64,000 nucleotides of DNA from a virus. Its lineage: Duplodnaviria; Caudoviricetes. Under the pieces are notes generated by a model that did no database searches, was not told the DNA's origin, and worked only from the letters and a program-made list of their open reading frames with translations. Below, in pieces: positions 21,926-52,084 of the stretch. Location: the IMG/VR virus record IMGVR_UViG_3300025098_005131; one strand, given 5' to 3'. The position numbers and the translations under genes were made by a program. Position 1 is the first letter of the stretch. Each line of letters starts with the position of its first letter.

Positions 21926-24900
21926 AATATGTTTGCCTCTATAATAAATGAATATCCAACGTTTGACTCTTTTTTCGTATATAGATTTTTACGAAAATCA
22001 TCATAACTCTCTCTATAATCTGAATTTTCATACACTTCTTTGTCTATTCTTCTAATTAACTCACTTCTTTCTATTTTTATATTAAATATATCATAATAAA
22101 TATCGTCTGTGAATATTTTTGCAAACTCTGTCATAGACATATTGTAGTCAAGCATTTTTAAAAAGTCATATGCATAAATCTGACTGTCAATAACCTCTAA
22201 ATTGTTTAACAAGTCCATTGTTCCATTTTCTAAGTTTATAATACTATCAAAAACATCTTTTTCTTTTAAAAATACTTTCTTGAATTCTTGATCAGACATG
22301 TTTTCATATACGTTAGTTGTCATAGAAGATAAAATATTTTTTGACGACGTACTCTCTAAGTTTAGATCTTTTTCATTAAAAACTTTTTGTTTTACATAAT
22401 CACAATATTTAACTGCATTAGAAGTTGCAATTTGATCATATATTAATGCATAAACGTCTTCGTTCTCTCTAATTGACCCATCTTCAGGCTCGAACAAGGC
22501 ATTTTCAAAATTTGTTCCTTCAACTATGTTTTTAATATATAATTCTGCTGTATCTCTATTTAAAATAGACATTCTATTTTCTAAACTCTTAATATTATGA
22601 TCAAAATATCCGACAAAATCATATGGATCAATTTGCTCAAAATTATTTTGTTCTTTAAGCAGTCTATAATGAAAAGGTAAGATATTTGTAAAACAAGGCA
22701 TATAATAATAATTTAGTGGTTTAAAATAAACATCAGGAAATTTATGATTTACAATATTTATTTTAATATGCAATACTTTGTTTTCTAAAACTTCTTTTGC
22801 TAAATCATACTTAATACCTAATCTAATAATATCGATATTTGAATTTCTGTCTATACCTTGTTGTTCATATGTTCTATAAATTTTATGAATAGACTTTTTA
22901 CATAGTTCTTTACTTAGTTCTTCTATCTTTTTATTTGGTCCAAACGCACCATCTTGAGAAAGAGAGTTTTCAAGATTTAAAATTCCTTGACTACTATTTA
23001 GCTTACTATACACGAAGTTTTGGTAAAGATATCTATCAATTGCATACTTTGATATTTTGTTTAATTTTGCATCATTATTAATGTATCTTAAGAAAGAAGG
23101 CAAACTATTTAAACCATCACCTAAGTCTGCCAATAAGTTTTCTACTTCATTAAAACTACTGTTTATACTTCCAGAAATACTTTGTAACTGAATATTTTCC
23201 TTACTATATAACCAATAGTGTAAAATATCATGACTTACTGCTTCAAGATCATTTGTATTACAAAAAGTATTATAACAAGCGTCCAAGTCATTTCTAACTT
23301 TAGTGTTTCCAGTGGGCAGTGCGCCTCCACTGAACACTTGCCTGCGCAGATCTCCCGGGACATAGACTGCGGCTCTAGCTGCCCGCTGGTGGTTTTTTAA
23401 CTCTTCTCTAACCACATCCAAAACTTCATTGTCCCAAATAAGCTCTGGGCTTAAAGTAAACGTTGAATTTCCTTTTGAAACATCATTGTCGCTGCTATAA
23501 AGATTATCTCCATAAGTTCCTGATTGATTAAATTCAAATTTAGTTATTTTATCTATATTTTTCTTAATAGATAAGTTTGTAACTTGGTCGTAATAAAAAG
23601 AAAAATGCTCAGCAATAGGCTTTATTAGATCATATACAACTTGAATAATACTATCATTGTTATTTATAAAGTCTGTTATACTAGATGCGTCATCAAAGTC
23701 TGAATTGTTATAATAACTCATCACTTCAATAATACTATTTTTTAAATTTTTTGAAAGCGTCCCAACAGATTCTAATTTATAAAAGTCTTCAAGATTCATA
23801 GAATATGAAGTAGTATAATTTAAATTATTTTTTAAACTTTCATACCTACTATTAACTTCATCTGTGCTGTTAGTATACGGGTTTATCATTTGTCTATAAA
23901 AAAGATTATCTGTGTCCAAGTTAAGCATAGCATCTTGGCCCTCTAGGATTGTATCATTATTTGTATCTGTTAAATTGTCCTCCATCACAATATAACTAAT
24001 TTCTGATTTTTCTGATGCTATATTAAATAAAACTTTTTTATTGTCTATGTTTTCTATATTTGCTGAAAAATTATCTTCACTGTTTATAGAAGATGTTTTC
24101 TCACATAAATAAGCGTCATAGTTAAATGATTTGCTTGTAATGAAATTTTTAAAAGACTTGTCATCTGAAGATAAAACATAACCTCTATTTCTAATATTTT
24201 GTCCGTCGCCAAACGCAATAATATCAGAGTAAAATAACTTCATAGGCTCTATGTTATTGCTAAATCTAAATTTATGCAGTATAAAAGGAAAAAGAAGTTG
24301 ATATACTTCTCCACCTATTGTAGAAAGTTCTCCGTAACTATCATTTTGTTCATCTCTATTTGCGGCAGCAGTATTTAACTTATACTCGCTTCTTGCTTTG
24401 CTTGCACTTATTTTGCTTAAACACTGCTCACTTAAAGTCCTGATAGTAAAACTTTGTTGCTTTTTAAAATTTTCCGTGTCAAAGACTTTTCCTATATACT
24501 TGTTATAACTTCCGTTAGTTGCCTCATTTAATTCAGTATAACTACCAATATTAAAACCATTTTTTTGCATTAAAGCTACATAAACTAAGTACTTAGCAAT
24601 ATCCAAACTGTCATCCCCAGCAATCGCATCTGATAAAAGTTTTTCAAAGCCAAGAAACCACCAGTTTGTTTGGGAAATAGCTATTTTTGTTGATAGATTT
24701 AAATAATTTAAATAAGTTTTTTCTGATTTAAAAAATCCAACGGGAAAATAATTTGACATAAATTTTCTATAGTCTGAAGAATTTATGTCAAATTGAATAT
24801 TACCGACTTGATTATTTTCTAAAACATATTGATCTAAAGGCTTTACTTTTTCGCTGTTTAACAAAAAATTATTTTTTGAATAAAACTTTTCATTACTATT

Positions 24901-45614: not shown

Positions 45615-45992
45615 TTACCCGTTTATTTTACTAAAGATATCATCATCTGATATACTTTCAGACTTTTCTTCTTCTTTTGCTATGAGTTCCGCTAATTTAA
45701 GTATTTGATCATTTGATTTGCTCATTCTCTCAATGTATTTTGACATAATAGAACCGATATTCATGTGTTCATTTACACCTCCTTGCATAGATATATAAGC
45801 ATCGTTAAATAAAAGCTTTGCTTTTTCTCTATCTTCAAGTGCATTTTCATAAATATCTTTCCACAGCATCTTTTTTTTGTCTTCTAAAGAGTCAATGTTA
45901 TCCAAAATATCAGCAAAGTTTTTGATTTGTTTTTCTTTTTTTTCGTTTTTATCTAAGTCTTTACTTGCTTTTTCAATCTCGTTAGTGTTCAT
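45615..45992 (-). CDS. Small helical protein, possible terminase small subunit
   Basis: 125 aa, all-helical oligomerisation-like pattern (IYENALEDREKA...YIERMSKSNDQILKLAELI); resemblance to gp16-type TerS is by eye only. Confidence 0.35.
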   Translation of the reverse strand: MNTNEIEKASKDLDKNEKKEKQIKNFADILDNIDSLEDKKKMLWKDIYENALEDREKAKLLFNDAYISMQGGVNEHMNIGSIMSKYIERMSKSNDQILKLAELIAKEEEKSESISDDDIFSKING

Positions 45993-46000
45993 ATTTTTTC

Positions 46001-46753
46001 CTAAAAGAATAAATCAAATTCTTCTTTTGTTCCACTTATTTTTTTAAAATGCTTTCTAATTGTAGAAAGCGAAGAGCTAAGCTCTGTGCTATTTAGACCA
46101 GAAATTTCTCTAAGGTATACAAAAACTGCTCTTTTGTTTAGATAATCTAAGTCGTCTGCCTTCATAAATATTTCCCTTACAGCTTCAATACATCTTAAGT
46201 CTCTTTCATCCTTAAGCCTTGTTTTAATTTCTACAACTATACTATCTATGTTTTTAGTTAAAATTGCTTTTCTTTCAAGTCTATATTGAGTTTCATCAAA
46301 TTCCATGTCAGCTAATTGTCGCTTTTCTGCTGATGTAAAATCTTCTGTTGCGTCAAATGATACACTTCTTTTAGCGTTTTTCAAAAGTCTTCTAGAATGT
46401 ATTGTTAGCCAATTTTTTGCAACAACATTAAAATATGAGAATGCTTTTGTTCCATTATCAGGATTCCACTTGTGAAGAGTTTCAAATAAAAAAGTTACGC
46501 AATCAGACTTTAAGTGTGTTATTTCTTCATTTGTTGATTTAAATTTGTAAACTGAAACTAAGTTGTGAACTAATTCTTCAAATGCTGTATGTATGTGTTT
46601 TGAATATATTCTATTTTTTTTAATTTTTCGATCTTCGTTTTGATAATCGACAATTTTACTTTGCGTTTCAGCAGTAAAATAATAATTCTTTTTTTTCTTC
46701 TTTTCTCTAGTATTTTTTTTATCGTTCAATTCAGTAGCTTTCTTCATCATCAT
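46001..46753 (-). CDS. Phage late-transcription sigma factor (gp55-like)
   Basis: Basic N-terminus KKKKNYYFT; sigma region 2-like LKSDCVTFLFETLHKWNPDNGTKAFSYFNVVAKNWL; exact start among three tandem ATGs is uncertain. Confidence 0.75.
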   Translation of the reverse strand: MMMKKATELNDKKNTREKKKKKNYYFTAETQSKIVDYQNEDRKIKKNRIYSKHIHTAFEELVHNLVSVYKFKSTNEEITHLKSDCVTFLFETLHKWNPDNGTKAFSYFNVVAKNWLTIHSRRLLKNAKRSVSFDATEDFTSAEKRQLADMEFDETQYRLERKAILTKNIDSIVVEIKTRLKDERDLRCIEAVREIFMKADDLDYLNKRAVFVYLREISGLNSTELSSSLSTIRKHFKKISGTKEEFDLFF

Positions 46754-47045
46754 TAATATCTTTTTTACTTATATTTGCTAAGTCATATGATATTTCGTAA
46801 ACAATACTTTTAACACTTAACACTTCTGTTAAAAGGCTTTTGATTTCAGGACTATCAAAAAAAACAGGTATTTCTGAGATTTGTGAAATTTTATTATATT
46901 TGTCGTCTATTTTATCAAGAGAATTTTCAATTGTATCTTGAATTTTAATAATTATTAAAGCAAACTTAATACAATAAAAAACTGACAATGTTAACAATAC
47001 ACCTAGTAATATTAAAAAGTAAATCAAACTACATGTGCCTTTCAA
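46731..47045 (-). CDS. Small membrane protein (N-terminal TM helix + coiled coil)
   Basis: Hydrophobic stretch LIYFLILLGVLLTLSVFYCIKFALIII; TTG start; 3' end overlaps the sigma start. Confidence 0.55.
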   Translation of the reverse strand: MKGTCSLIYFLILLGVLLTLSVFYCIKFALIIIKIQDTIENSLDKIDDKYNKISQISEIPVFFDSPEIKSLLTEVLSVKSIVYEISYDLANISKKDINDDEESY

Positions 47046-47099
47046 ATAAACTTTAGCAACTATATGTATTATTTATTAATTTTATAAAAAAGTTAATTT

Positions 47100-47933
47100 T
47101 TATTTACAATAATCGGTTCCCTTGAATTCGCAAAACATACAAGAATTTCTATTTTTTAGAAAAAATTGTTTTTCAACAGTTTTAATCATACTTCTAACCA
47201 TTTTTCTAGACTTTTCTAAGCTTTTTGGGCCGGCAGAAACTTTTATTAGTTGACAAGATTTACCAATAGTTTTAACCTTTTTGAGCAAAACGAAACCACA
47301 TTGTATATCTTTCATTTCAACATTGTGCTTTGTTCCCCAGAAGTGTTTATAAAGTATCACTTGCGCTTGCGTATTAAAGTCTCTTTGTTTATCTAAAGAC
47401 CATCCTCTTCCACTCGAAGTCTTCCAGTCAATAACCCAATACTTATATTTGTCTTTATAAGGTATTTTAATAATGCAATCAATATAACCTTTAAACTTTG
47501 TCGGAATGTTTTCCATGTTTTCATAGATTGCCTCTTCAGCAGACACTATTTCCCAGCTAGGAAAAGTATCGTTCATAAATTGTGGCATTGAATTCAAGCT
47601 AGTCTCTGCCCACTGAAGCCAGTCTTTTAATTTATTATGTTTATACTTCCAACCTTGTAATTGTGCTCTATTTGTTTGTAGTTGAATAAAATCTTCTGCA
47701 TCAAAACCGTGTTCATCCCAAGCTAATTTAATCTTATTTTGGGCTTCTTCGATTTTAAGCTCTTTTGTTTTTAAAAAATGTTCACATGCATCGTGGATTA
47801 TTGTTCCGTAATGTAGATGTGGGCTTTCTTCAAAAGTCCTCATTTTATCTATATATAATAACTTATGTCGCCAAGGACATTCTTTCCATTGGCGAACCTC
47901 AGAATAGGAGACATGCTCCTTTAAAATAGTCAT
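47100..47933 (-). CDS. PD-(D/E)XK nuclease, Cas4/RecB/AddB-like with probable Fe-S cluster
   Basis: SYS...ECP, GTIIH, KGYID, IDWKT, QVILY and terminal CMFC-x7-C; probable ATG at 47933 with SD GTGAGGT (ORF track TTG at 47951). Confidence 0.85.
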   Translation of the reverse strand: MTILKEHVSYSEVRQWKECPWRHKLLYIDKMRTFEESPHLHYGTIIHDACEHFLKTKELKIEEAQNKIKLAWDEHGFDAEDFIQLQTNRAQLQGWKYKHNKLKDWLQWAETSLNSMPQFMNDTFPSWEIVSAEEAIYENMENIPTKFKGYIDCIIKIPYKDKYKYWVIDWKTSSGRGWSLDKQRDFNTQAQVILYKHFWGTKHNVEMKDIQCGFVLLKKVKTIGKSCQLIKVSAGPKSLEKSRKMVRSMIKTVEKQFFLKNRNSCMFCEFKGTDYCK

Positions 47934-47937
47934 AACA

Positions 47938-47975
47938 GACCTCACTTTCAATATTATTATAGTAAAAGTGAGGTC
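47938..47975 (-). promoter_or_regulatory. 11-bp perfect inverted repeat covering the nuclease RBS, with a TATAAT box in the 16-nt loop
   Basis: Minus strand GACCTCACTTT-TACTATAATAATATTG-AAAGTGAGGTC-TGTT-ATG; arms at 47965-47975 and 47938-47948. Confidence 0.7.
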
Positions 47976-47999
47976 AATTGATAAATCTATTTTTAATTA

Positions 48000-50900
48000 T
48001 TAACTATTGTCAGATCTTGAAATCTCACACCAATTATTTCCATCATAAATTAATTGGATTGTATCGTCTTCATGGTCTAAATTAAAGCTGGCGTCACCAG
48101 CCAGCTTTATATTACCACCTGTAGACATTATAACTGTACGTCCACTGTCTTGAGCTTGTAGGATTAATGTCATACCTGCAACGCCGCCATTAATAACTCC
48201 CAAACCATCAGTGCTTGCATTGCCTTCTGTATCAACCTTGTGATAAGACTTAGTTACTGTGATCGCGCCAGAGGAAATAGTTAGTTCTGTAGGAGACCCA
48301 AGAATTACTTTGCCGCCAATTGTAAGGTTTGCGTCAGCACTCACTGCCTTAGAGACTGTTAGAGTTCCTGAAATTGTGTGGTCTTCGTTTGCATCACTTA
48401 AGTTTAATTGACCCTTTGAAGTAATATTACCTGTTGCAGAAGATAAAGTTAAGTTTGGCGCGCCACCATTTTTTAATTTAATGTCTGCATTAGCGCCATC
48501 ATAATTAACTACGCCCCCAAAGAAGCTTTCGCCTGCAATGCTAGTACCACCGTCAACTCTTAATATACCGTTTGTTGCAGTTGTACCAGCAGTTGTGCCT
48601 GTAAGATGAACTTGTCCGCCGGCACTTATCTGTAAAGCGTCTGCATCTGATGCAGATCCAATAGCGCCACCATCAGGAATTAATAAAGATCCTCCAACAG
48701 TTACATTATCATTAAATGAAGCTGCACCAGCTGCAGACATATCTAATGTAAGTGCTGTAATTCCGGCTCCACCATCATTGCCTTGGAAAACGATATCTTT
48801 ATCACTAACTAATGACTTAATTGTCAAATTGTCACCAGATAAATCAAAATGACCAACATTAGCAGAGCCATCTTTAAGTATAACTTGTTCACCAGTAACA
48901 TCTAAAACAATGTCGCCGCCTGAAGTTAATGTTAAGTCTGTATTGTCACCTTCAATCTTCTCACCATCTCCAAATACCAAACCTACATTCGCTGGAACGT
49001 GAATATCAGAAGTAGCTGTTAGATTAATTTTTGCACCTGATGCGATAGTAAGATCAGTTCCGTCTCCAGATATTGATTCACCACTATCCGTAACAAACTC
49101 TAATGGCACACCACTTGGCACAACAACAGCAGATGCTGCGGTTAGATTAATATCAGCACCTGAAGTTAATGTTAAGTTTGTATTGTCACCTTCAATCTTC
49201 TCACCAGTTCCAAAAAGAACACCTACGTTTGCAGGAATAACAACGTCTGCGACAGCAGTCAAATTAATATTATTACCAGAAATAGTAAGATCTGTACCAT
49301 CTCCTTCAATCTTCTCTCCATCATTACCAAATGTCAAACCAATTTCTTCAGGAATGTTTATGTCACCACCTACACCTACACTAAATGTAATATCAGTTCC
49401 ATCAGACTCAATCTTTTCTGCTCCTGTACCATCAAGAACTAGACCTACGCCGGCTGGTATAACAACGTCTGTAGTGGCTGTTAGATTAATCTTTCCTCCA
49501 GATGTAACAGTAAGATCTGTATCATCACCTTCAATCTTCTCACCATCCCCAAATACCAAGCCTACATTCGCTGGAACATGAACATCAGAAGTAGCTGTTA
49601 GATTAATCTTTCCTCCAGACGTAACAGTAAGATCTGTATCATCACCTTCAATCTTTTCGCCATCTCCAAATACCAAGCCAACATTTGCAGGAACATGCAC
49701 GTCAGAAGTAGCTGTTAGATTAATTTTTGCACCTGATGCGATAGTAAGATCAGTTCCATCTCCAGATATTTTTTCACCATCATCGCCAAATGTCAAACCA
49801 ATTCCTGATGCTATGTTAACATTTGAAGCAGCACCTAAGTCAATATCTGCTGCTGCTGTTAACTTTAAATTTGAAGATACAATATCAATGTGATTTGCTG
49901 CGCCATCAATTTCTAGCTTTCCAACTTGAACAGGACCTACAGCTACAGTAACATCAGAATCTGCACCAGTCTCTGCTGTTGTGCCTAGAAGAAATTTAGT
50001 ATTATCTTCATCCCAGATAATTGCTGCATTATTTCCAGATGTACCTCTTTCCATGATGAAACCCATATCAGTAGCATTTGCAGCTCCAGATAGCTCTGCT
50101 TGAAGCATGATGATTGCATCTTCAACGTCAAGATTAGTAGTACTTACAGTTGTTGTTGCTCCATTAACTGTAAGATTACCAGGGACAACAACTGTAGATG
50201 ATCCAGCACCTAAAGTCAAGTTATTTGCGCCAACAGAAGAACCAATTGTTAATGCACTAGCAGCGTCAACATCAATAGACGTACCTGTAATTGTTAAATT
50301 ATTCCCTACAGTTACGTTGTTGGATGCATCAAGAGTTAAATTAGCGTTTGTGCCGGCTGTTGATCCGCTACCAATAACTAAAGAATCAGAAAAGTCTTCT
50401 AAAGAAACATGGAAATTATTAATATTTCCATCAAATAACAACATAGTATCTGCTTCTTGAGCATTGCCAATAGTTAACTTAGCGCCAGAAGAAGTTAGTT
50501 TTACATCTGATGTTGATAAGTTCAAGACACCACTTGAAGAAATAGTAAGATCATCTCCATCTCCTTCAATCTTCTCGCCATCATCACCAAATGTCAAACC
50601 AACGTTAGCAGGTAAATTAACATCAGCAGTTGCTGTTAAATTAATATCTGCGCCAGATGTAATTGTCAAGTCTGTATCGTTAGACTCAATCTTTTCTGAC
50701 GCATTAGCATCAAAAACTAGGCCAACATTTGCAGGAAGGTGAACATCAGAAGTAGCGTTAAGATTTAATTTTGCACCTGATGCGATAGTAAGATCAGTAC
50801 CATCTCCTTCAATCTTCTCTCCGTCATCACCAAATGTCAAACCAATTGCTGAAGGAATATTGATATCGCCTCCGGCTCCCACGCTAATTGAAATATCTGT

Positions 50901-51992
50901 ACCGTCAGACTCAATCTTTTCTGCTCCTGTACCATCAAGAACTAGACCCACACCTGATGGTATTACGACATCAGAAGTAGCTGTTAGATTAATCTTTCCT
51001 CCAGATGTAACTGTAAGATCTGTATCGTCACCTTCAATCTTTTCGCCATCTCCAAATACCAAACCTACATTTGCAGGAACGTGCACGTCAGTTGTAGCTG
51101 TTAGGTTAAGCTTATTACTTGAAGAAATAGTAAGATCAGCTCCATCTCCTTCAATCTTCTCTCCGTCATCACCAAACGTTAATCCTACACCACTTGGAAC
51201 GTTAACGTCTGCGGTTGCTGTTAAATTAATGTCAGCCCCAGAAGTAATCGTTAAGTCTGTATCGTTAGACTCAATCTTTTCTGACGCATTAGCATCAAAA
51301 ACTAGACCAACATTTGCAGGAATGTGAACGTCAGTTGTAGCTGTTAGATTAATTTTTTCGCCTGAAGCAATAGTAAGATCAGTTCCGTCTCCAGTGATAT
51401 GCTCTCCTGAAGCTGCAGAACCAAATTCAAGTTTTGCACTCACACCGTCTATAACAACGTCGCCTGCTGAATCTAGTACAATATCACTTGTTCCGCCTGA
51501 AGCAATTTCAATTGCTGCATCATTAGTTGCTGTTAAAGTGCCACCTAACACATCAATATGAGCTGCTGAGCTGTCAATTTCTAGCTTTCCAACTTGAACA
51601 GAACCTACTGCTACAGTCACGTCTGTATCTGCACCAGTCTCTGCTGTTGTTCCCAATAAGAATGTATCTGAACTTTCATCCCAGATAATTGCTGCATTAT
51701 CTCCAGTTGAGCCTCTTTCCATGATAAAGCCCATATCTGTAGCATTTGCTACTCCATCACCTAATTCTGCTTGGAGATGTAGTATTGCATCTTCAACATT
51801 TAAATTTGATGTGCTAATTGTAGTAGTTGTCCCATTAACAGTCAAATTACCTGTTACTACGACGTTAGAGCCGAATGTTGTATCTGATTGTCCTGCAGGA
51901 ATATTAAGGTCTTGCACATGAAGTGTTCCCCATCTAAGTGATGACGTACCTAAATCGTGTCCGCCATCTGAATCTGGTTTTAAAGCTGCCAT
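48000..51992 (-). CDS. Tail fibre / appendage protein with 34-41 aa beta-repeats
   Basis: 1330 aa; 16 KIEGDxTDLTxxSG repeats in two blocks; duplicated NLxVEDA...GFIMERG...AAIIWDE module; N-terminal LKPDSDGGHDLGTSSLRW fibre motif; AAGG RBS. Confidence 0.75.
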   Translation of the reverse strand: MAALKPDSDGGHDLGTSSLRWGTLHVQDLNIPAGQSDTTFGSNVVVTGNLTVNGTTTTISTSNLNVEDAILHLQAELGDGVANATDMGFIMERGSTGDNAAIIWDESSDTFLLGTTAETGADTDVTVAVGSVQVGKLEIDSSAAHIDVLGGTLTATNDAAIEIASGGTSDIVLDSAGDVVIDGVSAKLEFGSAASGEHITGDGTDLTIASGEKINLTATTDVHIPANVGLVFDANASEKIESNDTDLTITSGADINLTATADVNVPSGVGLTFGDDGEKIEGDGADLTISSSNKLNLTATTDVHVPANVGLVFGDGEKIEGDDTDLTVTSGGKINLTATSDVVIPSGVGLVLDGTGAEKIESDGTDISISVGAGGDINIPSAIGLTFGDDGEKIEGDGTDLTIASGAKLNLNATSDVHLPANVGLVFDANASEKIESNDTDLTITSGADINLTATADVNLPANVGLTFGDDGEKIEGDGDDLTISSSGVLNLSTSDVKLTSSGAKLTIGNAQEADTMLLFDGNINNFHVSLEDFSDSLVIGSGSTAGTNANLTLDASNNVTVGNNLTITGTSIDVDAASALTIGSSVGANNLTLGAGSSTVVVPGNLTVNGATTTVSTTNLDVEDAIIMLQAELSGAANATDMGFIMERGTSGNNAAIIWDEDNTKFLLGTTAETGADSDVTVAVGPVQVGKLEIDGAANHIDIVSSNLKLTAAADIDLGAASNVNIASGIGLTFGDDGEKISGDGTDLTIASGAKINLTATSDVHVPANVGLVFGDGEKIEGDDTDLTVTSGGKINLTATSDVHVPANVGLVFGDGEKIEGDDTDLTVTSGGKINLTATTDVVIPAGVGLVLDGTGAEKIESDGTDITFSVGVGGDINIPEEIGLTFGNDGEKIEGDGTDLTISGNNINLTAVADVVIPANVGVLFGTGEKIEGDNTNLTLTSGADINLTAASAVVVPSGVPLEFVTDSGESISGDGTDLTIASGAKINLTATSDIHVPANVGLVFGDGEKIEGDNTDLTLTSGGDIVLDVTGEQVILKDGSANVGHFDLSGDNLTIKSLVSDKDIVFQGNDGGAGITALTLDMSAAGAASFNDNVTVGGSLLIPDGGAIGSASDADALQISAGGQVHLTGTTAGTTATNGILRVDGGTSIAGESFFGGVVNYDGANADIKLKNGGAPNLTLSSATGNITSKGQLNLSDANEDHTISGTLTVSKAVSADANLTIGGKVILGSPTELTISSGAITVTKSYHKVDTEGNASTDGLGVINGGVAGMTLILQAQDSGRTVIMSTGGNIKLAGDASFNLDHEDDTIQLIYDGNNWCEISRSDNS
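48915..49835 (-). repeat. Second block of 8 imperfect 34-41 aa tandem repeats
   Basis: For example KIEGDDTDLTVTSGGKINLTATSDVHVPANVGLVFGDGE, with long identical DNA stretches between units; boundaries approximate. Confidence 0.85.
50515..51405 (-). repeat. First block of 8 imperfect 34-41 aa tandem repeats
   Basis: Units 1-2 are nearly duplicated as units 6-7 (identical DNA aagtctgtatcgttagactcaatcttttctgacgcattagcatcaaaaactag at about 50668 and 51253); boundaries approximate. Confidence 0.85.
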
Positions 51993-52084
51993 AAAATTTT
52001 ACCTTTCTAAATTTAATATGAACTAACCACAGAAATTATAAAAATTATCTCTGTTTCTTTTATTAATTATTACTGTTAATATAT

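Follow-up and report, generated by a model that had tools for sequence, protein, structure and literature searches.

Translation of several phage T4 genes is held back by secondary structure: in e, soc, 49 and I-TevI a hairpin occludes the ribosome-binding site (RBS), and this hairpin is bypassed by a promoter located inside the hairpin region (PMC3014915). A second arrangement of promoters with hairpins is the promoter-early stem-loop (PeSL) cassette of T4-type phages (Arbiol et al. 2010, PMC2839356; Comeau et al. 2014, PMC4122927). Here we analyze an element of comparable design in the IMG/VR virus record IMGVR_UViG_3300025098_005131 (Duplodnaviria; Caudoviricetes), using a stretch of 64,000 nt that is referred to below as the window. 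The element lies on the minus strand between a tail-fiber-like gene and the gene of a Cas4-like nuclease, and consists of a hairpin whose 3' arm contains the Shine-Dalgarno (SD) sequence of the nuclease gene and whose loop holds the -10 hexamer of a putative promoter. A preliminary description, made from the sequence alone, had likened it to the four T4 genes, whose hairpins are organized as it stated. Outside T4, mobE of phage Aeh1 is reportedly a further case of hairpin bypass, said to have been described by Gibb and Edgell in 2009, and the insertion sequence IS10 is said to protect its transposase gene from outside transcription by "fold-back inhibition", a term credited to Davis, Simons and Kleckner in 1985.

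The element is, on balance, probably a translational insulator of the nuclease from read-through of the fiber gene, with the promoter in the hairpin providing the bypass. The evidence consists of the folding of the two predicted RNA forms, the conservation of their pairing among relatives, and the restriction of the anti-SD arm to loci with one particular gene context.

Layout and folding of the element

The element is made up of the following parts.

47979 to 47984, minus strand: -35-like hexamer, TTATCA as read directly, with TTATAA, GTGTAA, GTGTAC or TTATAC in relatives
47963 to 47975, minus strand: left (anti-SD) arm GACCTCACTTTTA, inside the promoter spacer and pairing with 47950-47938
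47956 to 47961, minus strand: -10 hexamer TATAAT, in the hairpin loop, 17 nt after the -35-like hexamer
47948 to 47949, minus strand: predicted transcription start G47949, placed 7 nt after the -10 hexamer from the position of the latter; first base of the right arm
47938 to 47950, minus strand: right arm TGAAAGTGAGGTC, containing the SD sequence GAGG at 47943-47940
47931 to 47936, minus strand: GTT and the ATG start codon, the outer-helix partner of the -35 region (47977-47983) on the long RNA

The two hexamers with their 17-nt spacing, the arms, the SD and the start codon lie where the preliminary description had placed them, as read directly from the minus strand. Its 11-bp stem is indeed a perfect repeat (GACCTCACTTT at 47975-47965 against AAAGTGAGGTC at 47948-47938, with the -10 hexamer in the 16-nt loop), but this is not the full extent of the structure: folding lengthens the stem to 13 bp by adding U47964.G47949 and A47963-U47950, and an outer helix between 47983-47977 and 47936-47931 pairs the AUG. 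Stem, outer helix and inner pairs together form an interrupted duplex of ~20 bp. The SD does lie in the right arm, although its spacing required correction, since four nucleotides (TGTT) separate this arm from the nuclease ATG at 47933-47931.

The 61-nt element has a minimum free energy of -20.6 kcal/mol (z = -5.8), and none of 200 shuffled sequences was equally stable. On RNA beginning at 48000 or 48100, the ensemble cost of exposing positions -13 to +3, which span the SD and the AUG, is 21.6-22.1 kcal/mol. The same opening costs 4.1-4.9 kcal/mol on RNA starting at 47951-47946, with little sensitivity to the exact start anywhere in that interval, and RNA from 47949 has no significant structure (z = -0.66). 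The left arm is present only on RNA begun upstream of the promoter, given the predicted start. Folding of both forms agrees with two proposals made previously, namely that the hairpin would sequester the SD on any RNA carrying the left arm (opening cost ~22 kcal/mol), and that a transcript directed by the -10 hexamer in the loop would start at the right arm and stay open (~4.7 kcal/mol for a start at 47949). In the fold the AUG is sequestered along with the SD.

Judged from the window alone, the element is notable and not decisive, and it is the relatives that carry the weight. The pattern TTATMA-N17-TATAAT has one copy in the window against 0.21 expected, and promoter-like (sigma-70-like) matches overall occur there at chance frequency. 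The element is one of five sites in the window with a perfect inverted repeat of at least 11 bp and a loop of 3-20 nt, sites which account for 8 overlapping counts against 1.1 expected, and it falls within the eight most stable 60-nt segments of the minus-strand RNA. By its coordinates it is intergenic; the 11 other stable segments listed lie inside open reading frames (ORFs). The longest perfect inverted repeat of the window, 15 bp (AATTTGACATAAATT / AATTTATGTCAAATT) with a 15-nt spacer, is found at 24750-24794 inside an ORF of 1831 aa.

Pairing, gene context and promoter in the relatives

Two collection scans yielded 154 relative loci, 72 of which have distinct upstream sequence. Pairing was counted in per-sequence folds of 26 unique sense sequences at 12 right-arm positions. 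Among the resulting 312 cells, 267 were Watson-Crick pairs, 35 were G.U pairs and 10 were unpaired, with no A.C cells, and the variable pairs were limited to CG/UG, AU/GU and AU/UA. In the left arm, the only changes seen are C-to-U, A-to-G and compensated A-U to U-A, and its variants GACCTTATTTT, GATTTCTCTTT, GGCTTCACTTT and GACCTCGCTTT preserve pairing in the sense-strand RNA only. Where the SD itself differs, the opposite arm follows: in L017, GACCTCTCTTTC complements the SD variant GAAAGAGAGGTC (a compensated GUG to GAG change), and three other loci (L087, L019 and L106) compensate the same SD position on slightly different left arms.

An alignment made with MAFFT (A1) misplaces the left arm where it is shifted by 1 nt, and an alignment to a covariance model (A4) was used instead. 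Over its 30 distinct rows, 96.4% of cells pair, compared to 38-57% with the partners slid, and 97.7% of the cells of the outer helix (helix 1) are paired, although these figures lean towards the structure to which the alignment was fitted. Seven cells are changed on both sides, and the covariation score of 0.155, against 0.115, was reached by none of 500 shuffles. These patterns point to selection acting on the pairing of the sense-strand RNA. The preliminary description had offered a lack of conservation or covariation of the stem in relatives as grounds for rejection, and the stem is both conserved and covarying. It had likewise named the upstream TTG at 47951 as a start codon that would escape the stem; this triplet is not a conserved start, being replaced by an in-frame TAG in L017, by ACG in L007 and by ATG or GTG in other loci; it has no preceding SD and was rejected as a candidate.

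The presence of the left arm depends on the gene that lies upstream. Arm strength was taken from the most stable duplex that the leader can form with the -35-plus-spacer segment, with z calculated against shuffled spacers. A strong duplex (-14.7 to -24.1 kcal/mol, z of -4 to -8.6) is found in 24 of the 28 loci with a co-directional fiber-family gene upstream; 23 of these 24 fiber genes end 57-72 nt before the ATG, and in the remaining locus (L092) the nearest called ORF is 311 nt away. Where a member of the same gene family is divergent, the duplex reaches only -1 to -9 kcal/mol and is strong in none of 8 loci, and with another gene upstream it reaches -1 to -10 kcal/mol and is strong in none of 12. 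Sixty other promoters of the same class (see below) have a mean duplex of -4.7 kcal/mol and a minimum of -11.1, none reaching -14. The association with context has a Fisher p of 1.3e-9, a raw value that ignores relatedness and recombination. In the nuclease tree, the divergent loci that lack the hairpin are supported sisters of hairpin-bearing loci in at least three contrasts (e.g., L087/L031, L009/L015, and L005 with L007 among L003 and L006). The L096/L014 contrast agrees with these, the divergent context of L014 being judged only from its likeness to L015. All four or five contrasts run in the same direction, with a sign test of 0.06-0.03. In loci without a fiber gene upstream, the spacer is unrelated sequence and the -35 and -10 hexamers are unmoved. 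When 383 kb comprising the window and the loci were searched with a covariance model of the element (R1), the nuclease locus was the sole match.

Because the pairing is conserved and covarying, and because the spacer is relaxed where no fiber gene precedes it, an RNA with both arms would be expected to exist and to matter. Such an RNA must start upstream of the promoter, and we infer that read-through RNA from the fiber gene occurs.

A distant clade (L029, L030 and L035; 53-58% identity) has a different lock, in which an 8-bp stem (GACAUAUU/AAUAUGUC) pairs the AUG and holds the SD in its loop. The 5' arm of this stem begins 4 nt after the -10 hexamer, so that a resident start would fall inside the arm. 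The leader sequence of this clade recurs in L129, L131-L134, L137 and L151. The same principle may have arisen independently in this clade.

The promoter is conserved beyond the loci that have the hairpin. A -35-like hexamer, nTnTAn, is found at a fixed distance of 17 nt from the -10 hexamer in ~50 relatives, and ~70 related marine phage contigs have nTnTAA-N17-TATAAT-N6-GAAAGnGAGGTC ahead of the nuclease gene. Down to a protein identity of 66%, the order after TATAAT (6-7 nt, GAAAGnGAGGTC, N4-6, ATG) is near-universal. Most loci have TTATAA as the -35-like hexamer; it is GTGTAA in L005, GTGTAT in L121, GTGTAC in L022, L108, L111 and L114, and TTATAC in L028, L123 and L152. The -10 hexamer TATAAT is near-invariant (TATACT in 7 relatives, TACAAT in 1), and alignment A1 shows no variation at the equivalent of G47949. 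We regard it as very likely that the promoter is real, because it is also kept in 8 loci where the upstream gene is divergent and where it is the sole possible promoter.

The preliminary description had taken this for an early promoter read by host sigma factor, an assignment that its sequence does not favor: TTATCA, TTATAA, GTGTAA and GTGTAC are not good host sigma-70 hexamers and appear to define a phage-specific class. Matches to KTRTAA-N17/18-TATAAT number 36 and 44 in the related genomes G001 (239.5 kb, with terminal repeats) and G002 (211 kb), against 9 and 7 for the reversed control, and lie mostly in same-strand arrays at intervals of 0.4-3 kb. By sequence, then, the nuclease promoter belongs to a phage GTGTAA/TTATAA cassette class that is neither canonical sigma-70 nor of the T4 late type. 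The sequence upstream of the -35 hexamer is AT-rich. The motif AAATAGWT is conserved just upstream of this hexamer in fiber-adjacent loci and shows no enrichment in the window (22 copies, 22 expected). Among the cassette promoters of G001 and G002 (L173-L213), many of the GTGTAA class share an initial transcribed sequence, TATAAT-A(A/T)A(C/T)CA-TAAGG(T)CC, followed by a long, A/C-rich leader that ends in AAAGGA-N6-9-ATG; these appear to form a conserved family of 5' leaders. A second site of the same class, TTATAA-N17-TATAGT, is located at 47059-47087 (minus strand) in the 54-nt gap between the nuclease stop codon and orf104; this is the position at which a glycosyltransferase-like gene of other relatives (see below) is missing, and the sequence is common to the window and L001 and different in other relatives.

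A late-type motif, ATAATTAA, at 47993-48000 had been proposed as a second source of locked RNA. It is not conserved in most relatives, and was rejected as a conserved late promoter: among the loci read it is exact at the junction only in L018 and L105, with a few close variants (AATTAAG). The motif is under-represented in the window (8 copies, 18 expected). Three of its four minus-strand copies (1680-1687, 47993-48000 and 52063-52070) are intergenic and upstream of structural genes, and the motif could be part of a late-type signal.

The genes that surround the element are as follows.

47100 to 47933, minus strand: Cas4-like PD-(D/E)XK nuclease, 277 aa; PF12705 at 80.3 bits (cut-off 22) and PHROG exonuclease families
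48000 to 51992, minus strand: tail-fiber-like gene, 1330 aa; co-directional, with its stop codon 66 nt before the nuclease ATG; presumed source of read-through
46001 to 46753, minus strand: ORF of 250 aa resembling sigma region 2 (Atlas lead only), two genes downstream of the nuclease

The nuclease translation contains Cys19 and C265-x2-C268-x7-C276, together with an IDWK motif and QxxxY; the PDDEXK_1 match above threshold and the one N-terminal and three C-terminal cysteines fit a predicted Cas4-like member of the RecB family. Searches of PDB sequences with the nuclease and with the fiber protein gave no match. The fiber label is a weak one, taken from a PHROG "virion structural protein" match and an Atlas lead to the tail-fiber C-terminal domain PF26209. 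BLAST places the genes upstream of the nuclease in the relatives in a single family, and the neighbors of the fiber gene are gp25-like, gp6-like and baseplate-fiber-connector-like genes. An identification of the 250-aa ORF as gp55 was considered and not adopted, Pfam, NCBIfam and PHROGs being silent and the Atlas lead reaching only to sigma region 2.

Nuclease, orf104, the 250-aa ORF and orf125 form a block (45615-47933, minus strand) that is syntenic in all relatives, as read downstream of the nuclease in L001-L035. Most relatives have an additional gene after the nuclease, with a product starting MKKKKILIISDHA..SGVG and judged by eye to be glycosyltransferase-like; neither the window nor L001 has this gene. 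An arrangement of nuclease, glycosyltransferase and sigma in this order is reminiscent of T4 genes 47, a-gt and 55. The nuclease had been described as lying inside the structural operon; by this gene content it instead heads a conserved non-structural block wedged between the fiber and baseplate genes. The C-termini of the fiber family are very different (..NWCEISRSDNS, ..GTNWLII, ..AIAGGW and ..FVVM among L001-L019 and L076-L106), and the ~60-nt junction of promoter and hairpin is conserved despite this, which suggests module exchange with a breakpoint at the fiber stop codon. Loci L128 and L096, the nucleases of which show 58% and 81% identity, respectively, have their upstream 100 nt in common. 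A "distant" blastn search of 50,697 phage records gave no match.

Mode of action and alternative explanations

The proposed mechanism begins with the nuclease having its own promoter, nTnTAA-N17-TATAAT, which belongs to the cassette class and would very probably be used before late transcription. RNA started at ~47949, the first base of the SD arm, would lack the complementary arm and be translated. RNA from the co-directional fiber gene would carry the anti-SD arm hidden in the promoter spacer, and this read-through RNA is predicted to fold into the 13-bp stem and the outer helix, burying the SD and the AUG, so that no nuclease would be made from it. Nuclease synthesis would then follow its own promoter only, uncoupled from the presumably late transcription of the fiber gene. 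The transcription start, the timing of both promoters and the size of the translational effect are predictions from the sequence.

Fiber genes are late in T4, and this timing is assumed here for the present phage. If the sigma-like ORF in the block is what it resembles, it would have to be made before the late genes. The downstream reach of a ribosome is estimated at ~12-15 nt. The fiber stop codon is 25 nt from the left arm here, and roughly 16-30 nt from it in relatives, as read by eye from the junctions. Because this gap exceeds the reach, terminating ribosomes would be clear of the stem, and translational coupling should not open it.

A wider interpretation, which we put forward tentatively and hold with somewhat less than even confidence, is that the element mirrors the T4 lock in reverse. 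The promoter in the hairpin would be pre-late, perhaps recognized by a phage sigma factor, and would yield translatable mRNA; the mRNA arising from late read-through of the fiber gene would be silent. As an insulator open to evolutionary change, the anti-SD arm would be retained where a late fiber gene lies co-directionally upstream of this pre-late block and would decay elsewhere. If this is true, the locus illustrates in nature how translational insulation between temporal gene classes can evolve according to context. The suggestion that the lock keeps the nuclease off during DNA packaging is speculation.

Several observations weigh against the insulator interpretation, in addition to the lean of the covariance-model figures given above. 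Four fiber-adjacent loci have only a degraded stem: L001, whose nuclease is 99% identical, L096, and L021/L117. The loci are not independent, and recombination could move the arm along with the fiber modules. The timing assigned to the nTnTAA class is deduced from the organization of its members in arrays and from the sigma-like ORF in the block. Besides any effect on translation, a stable hairpin placed behind a gene might lower transcription by attenuation or shield a 3' end. Finally, RNA matches to the nuclease are small contigs inside the ORF only: three oligo-dT marine metatranscriptomes gave contigs of 230-270 nt in the nuclease ORF (about 47290-47680) and scattered pieces of the fiber gene, and no contig of these three runs lies over 47728-48197. 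Of the contigs at 47293-47677, two show 2 differences across 234-266 nt and a third shows 8 across 250 nt. These RNA libraries therefore contain close relatives, although DNA carry-over may contribute.

An alternative that we regard as unlikely, although it is the most probable of those considered, is that the hairpin serves primarily to terminate or attenuate transcription of the fiber gene, like a PeSL, and that its overlap with the SD is incidental or secondary. In its favor, the hairpin occurs only immediately behind a long co-directional gene, its stem has a stability of about -20 kcal/mol, and an untranslated nuclease ORF would invite Rho-dependent polarity. PeSL stem-loops lie between the -35 and -10 hexamers of early promoters, or over the -10, and one that was tested reduced reporter expression like a known strong terminator (PMC2839356). 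However, a terminator scan gives no call at the hairpin, which does not have the G+C-rich stem, short loop and 3' U tract of an intrinsic terminator. Its loop is long (12-16 nt), and the tail after the stem, UGUUAUG here, is variable or A-rich in relatives (UAAAAUG in L087, AAAAUG in L093 and AGUUAUG in L009), with no conserved U tract, and itself pairs within the outer helix. These three features make a classic terminator unlikely, although some weaker attenuation, or Rho-dependent polarity on the untranslated ORF, may still occur. The 3' arm is moreover exactly the SD in every locus, and the 5' arm tracks the SD variants, which is needless for a terminator.

The same duplex could be an element of RNA processing or stability, such as an RNase III-type site or a 3'-end protector that parts the fiber mRNA from the downstream block. 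An interrupted duplex of ~20 bp, selection on sense-strand pairing and occurrence only with a long gene upstream are all consistent with this, but nothing specific indicates cleavage, and the proposal does not explain why one strand of the duplex should be the SD and AUG of the next gene. We consider it improbable as a separate explanation; cleavage in the stem would itself alter access to the RBS, which makes it partly a variant of the insulator model.

Selection could instead have acted on the DNA, with the inverted repeat serving as an operator of a dimeric repressor that flanks the -10 hexamer or as a recombination anchor for swapping fiber modules. The repeat does bracket the -10 hexamer, and the diversity of the fiber C-termini beside a conserved 60-nt junction suggests recombination there, as has been proposed for PeSLs (PMC2839356). 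The substitutions speak against it: C-to-U and A-to-G changes occur on the left arm only, retaining G.U pairs in the sense RNA and breaking the symmetry of the DNA, and the right arm is fixed by the SD and not by symmetry. In divergent loci the promoter appears to work without the left arm, and a recombination anchor would not yield compensatory changes. We therefore think a DNA-level role very improbable. Chance complementarity in AT-rich intergenic DNA is hardly credible, despite the chance level of promoter-like matches and the several other perfect inverted repeats in the window, given a stem that is conserved with covariation in ~25 distinct sequences, is strictly tied to gene context, and has no comparable pairing in the 60 promoters of the same class.

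Comparison with known systems

The element interpreted here as an insulator resembles the T4 lock in its working parts. On the longer transcript, derived from upstream, the SD (GAGG) and the AUG would lie in a stable helix, and transcripts of the element's own promoter, with a predicted start at 47949, would lack the 5' strand of this helix and be translated. Both occur in T4-like phages, and the regulated gene is a nuclease here as in I-TevI, mobE and gene 49. The promoters differ. The T4 internal promoter is of the gp55-type late class (TATAAATA, lacking a -35) and it is early or middle RNAs that are silenced, whereas the promoter found here has a conserved -35-like hexamer at 17 nt and falls in the cassette class, and the silenced RNA is predicted to come from a structural (fiber) gene. 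Since it has a -35-like element, this promoter is not of the T4 gp55 type, and the element would therefore work like the T4 lock without belonging to the same regulatory class. Relative to T4, its temporal sense is probably inverted.

The likeness to PeSLs lies mainly in the promoter and its surroundings. Both have a strong non-late promoter with AT-rich sequence upstream, a stem-loop interleaved with the -35 and -10 hexamers, an SD and start codon at the 3' end, and a position at junctions of shuffled neighbor genes, and the promoter class described here is likewise repeated and heads gene cassettes. PeSL stem-loops are situated wholly upstream of the start site, often have G/C tracts, and act as terminators. 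Here, by contrast, the 3' arm comes after the predicted start and coincides with the SD, and no terminator is called. The PeSL composite is repeated through hyperplastic regions, whereas the composite described here is single-copy, as judged from the R1 matches and from the 60 sister promoters.

In purpose, the closest analog appears to be IS10 fold-back inhibition, in which read-through RNA originating outside the element carries sequence complementary to the RBS, transcription from the resident promoter begins beyond that sequence, and the outcome is insulation. The present element differs in its setting, a phage genome without transposase or terminal inverted repeats, in which the downstream gene is a nuclease in a syntenic block and the outside transcription would be that of a defined temporal class.

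A promoter-in-hairpin lock is known from T4, and a full-text literature search found no described case of the inverted arrangement, which is not proof of its absence. What appears to be new at this locus is the opposite promoter class and the context-dependent anti-SD arm, and it is the presence of this arm in some relatives and its absence in others, according to context, that is the most informative new point. The promoter-in-hairpin locks that we found described hold back late functions on early RNA; here such a device is found in an uncultured marine T4-like giant phage, and its relatives constitute a natural experiment suggesting that phages use anti-SD arms as portable insulators when temporal modules are shuffled together. 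For genome annotation, this would mean that the expression class of such a gene would not be predicted by its neighborhood, and the same principle bears on the design of insulated synthetic operons. The comparison also flags the Cas4-like nuclease as a gene whose synthesis phages seem to keep independent of fiber-gene transcription.

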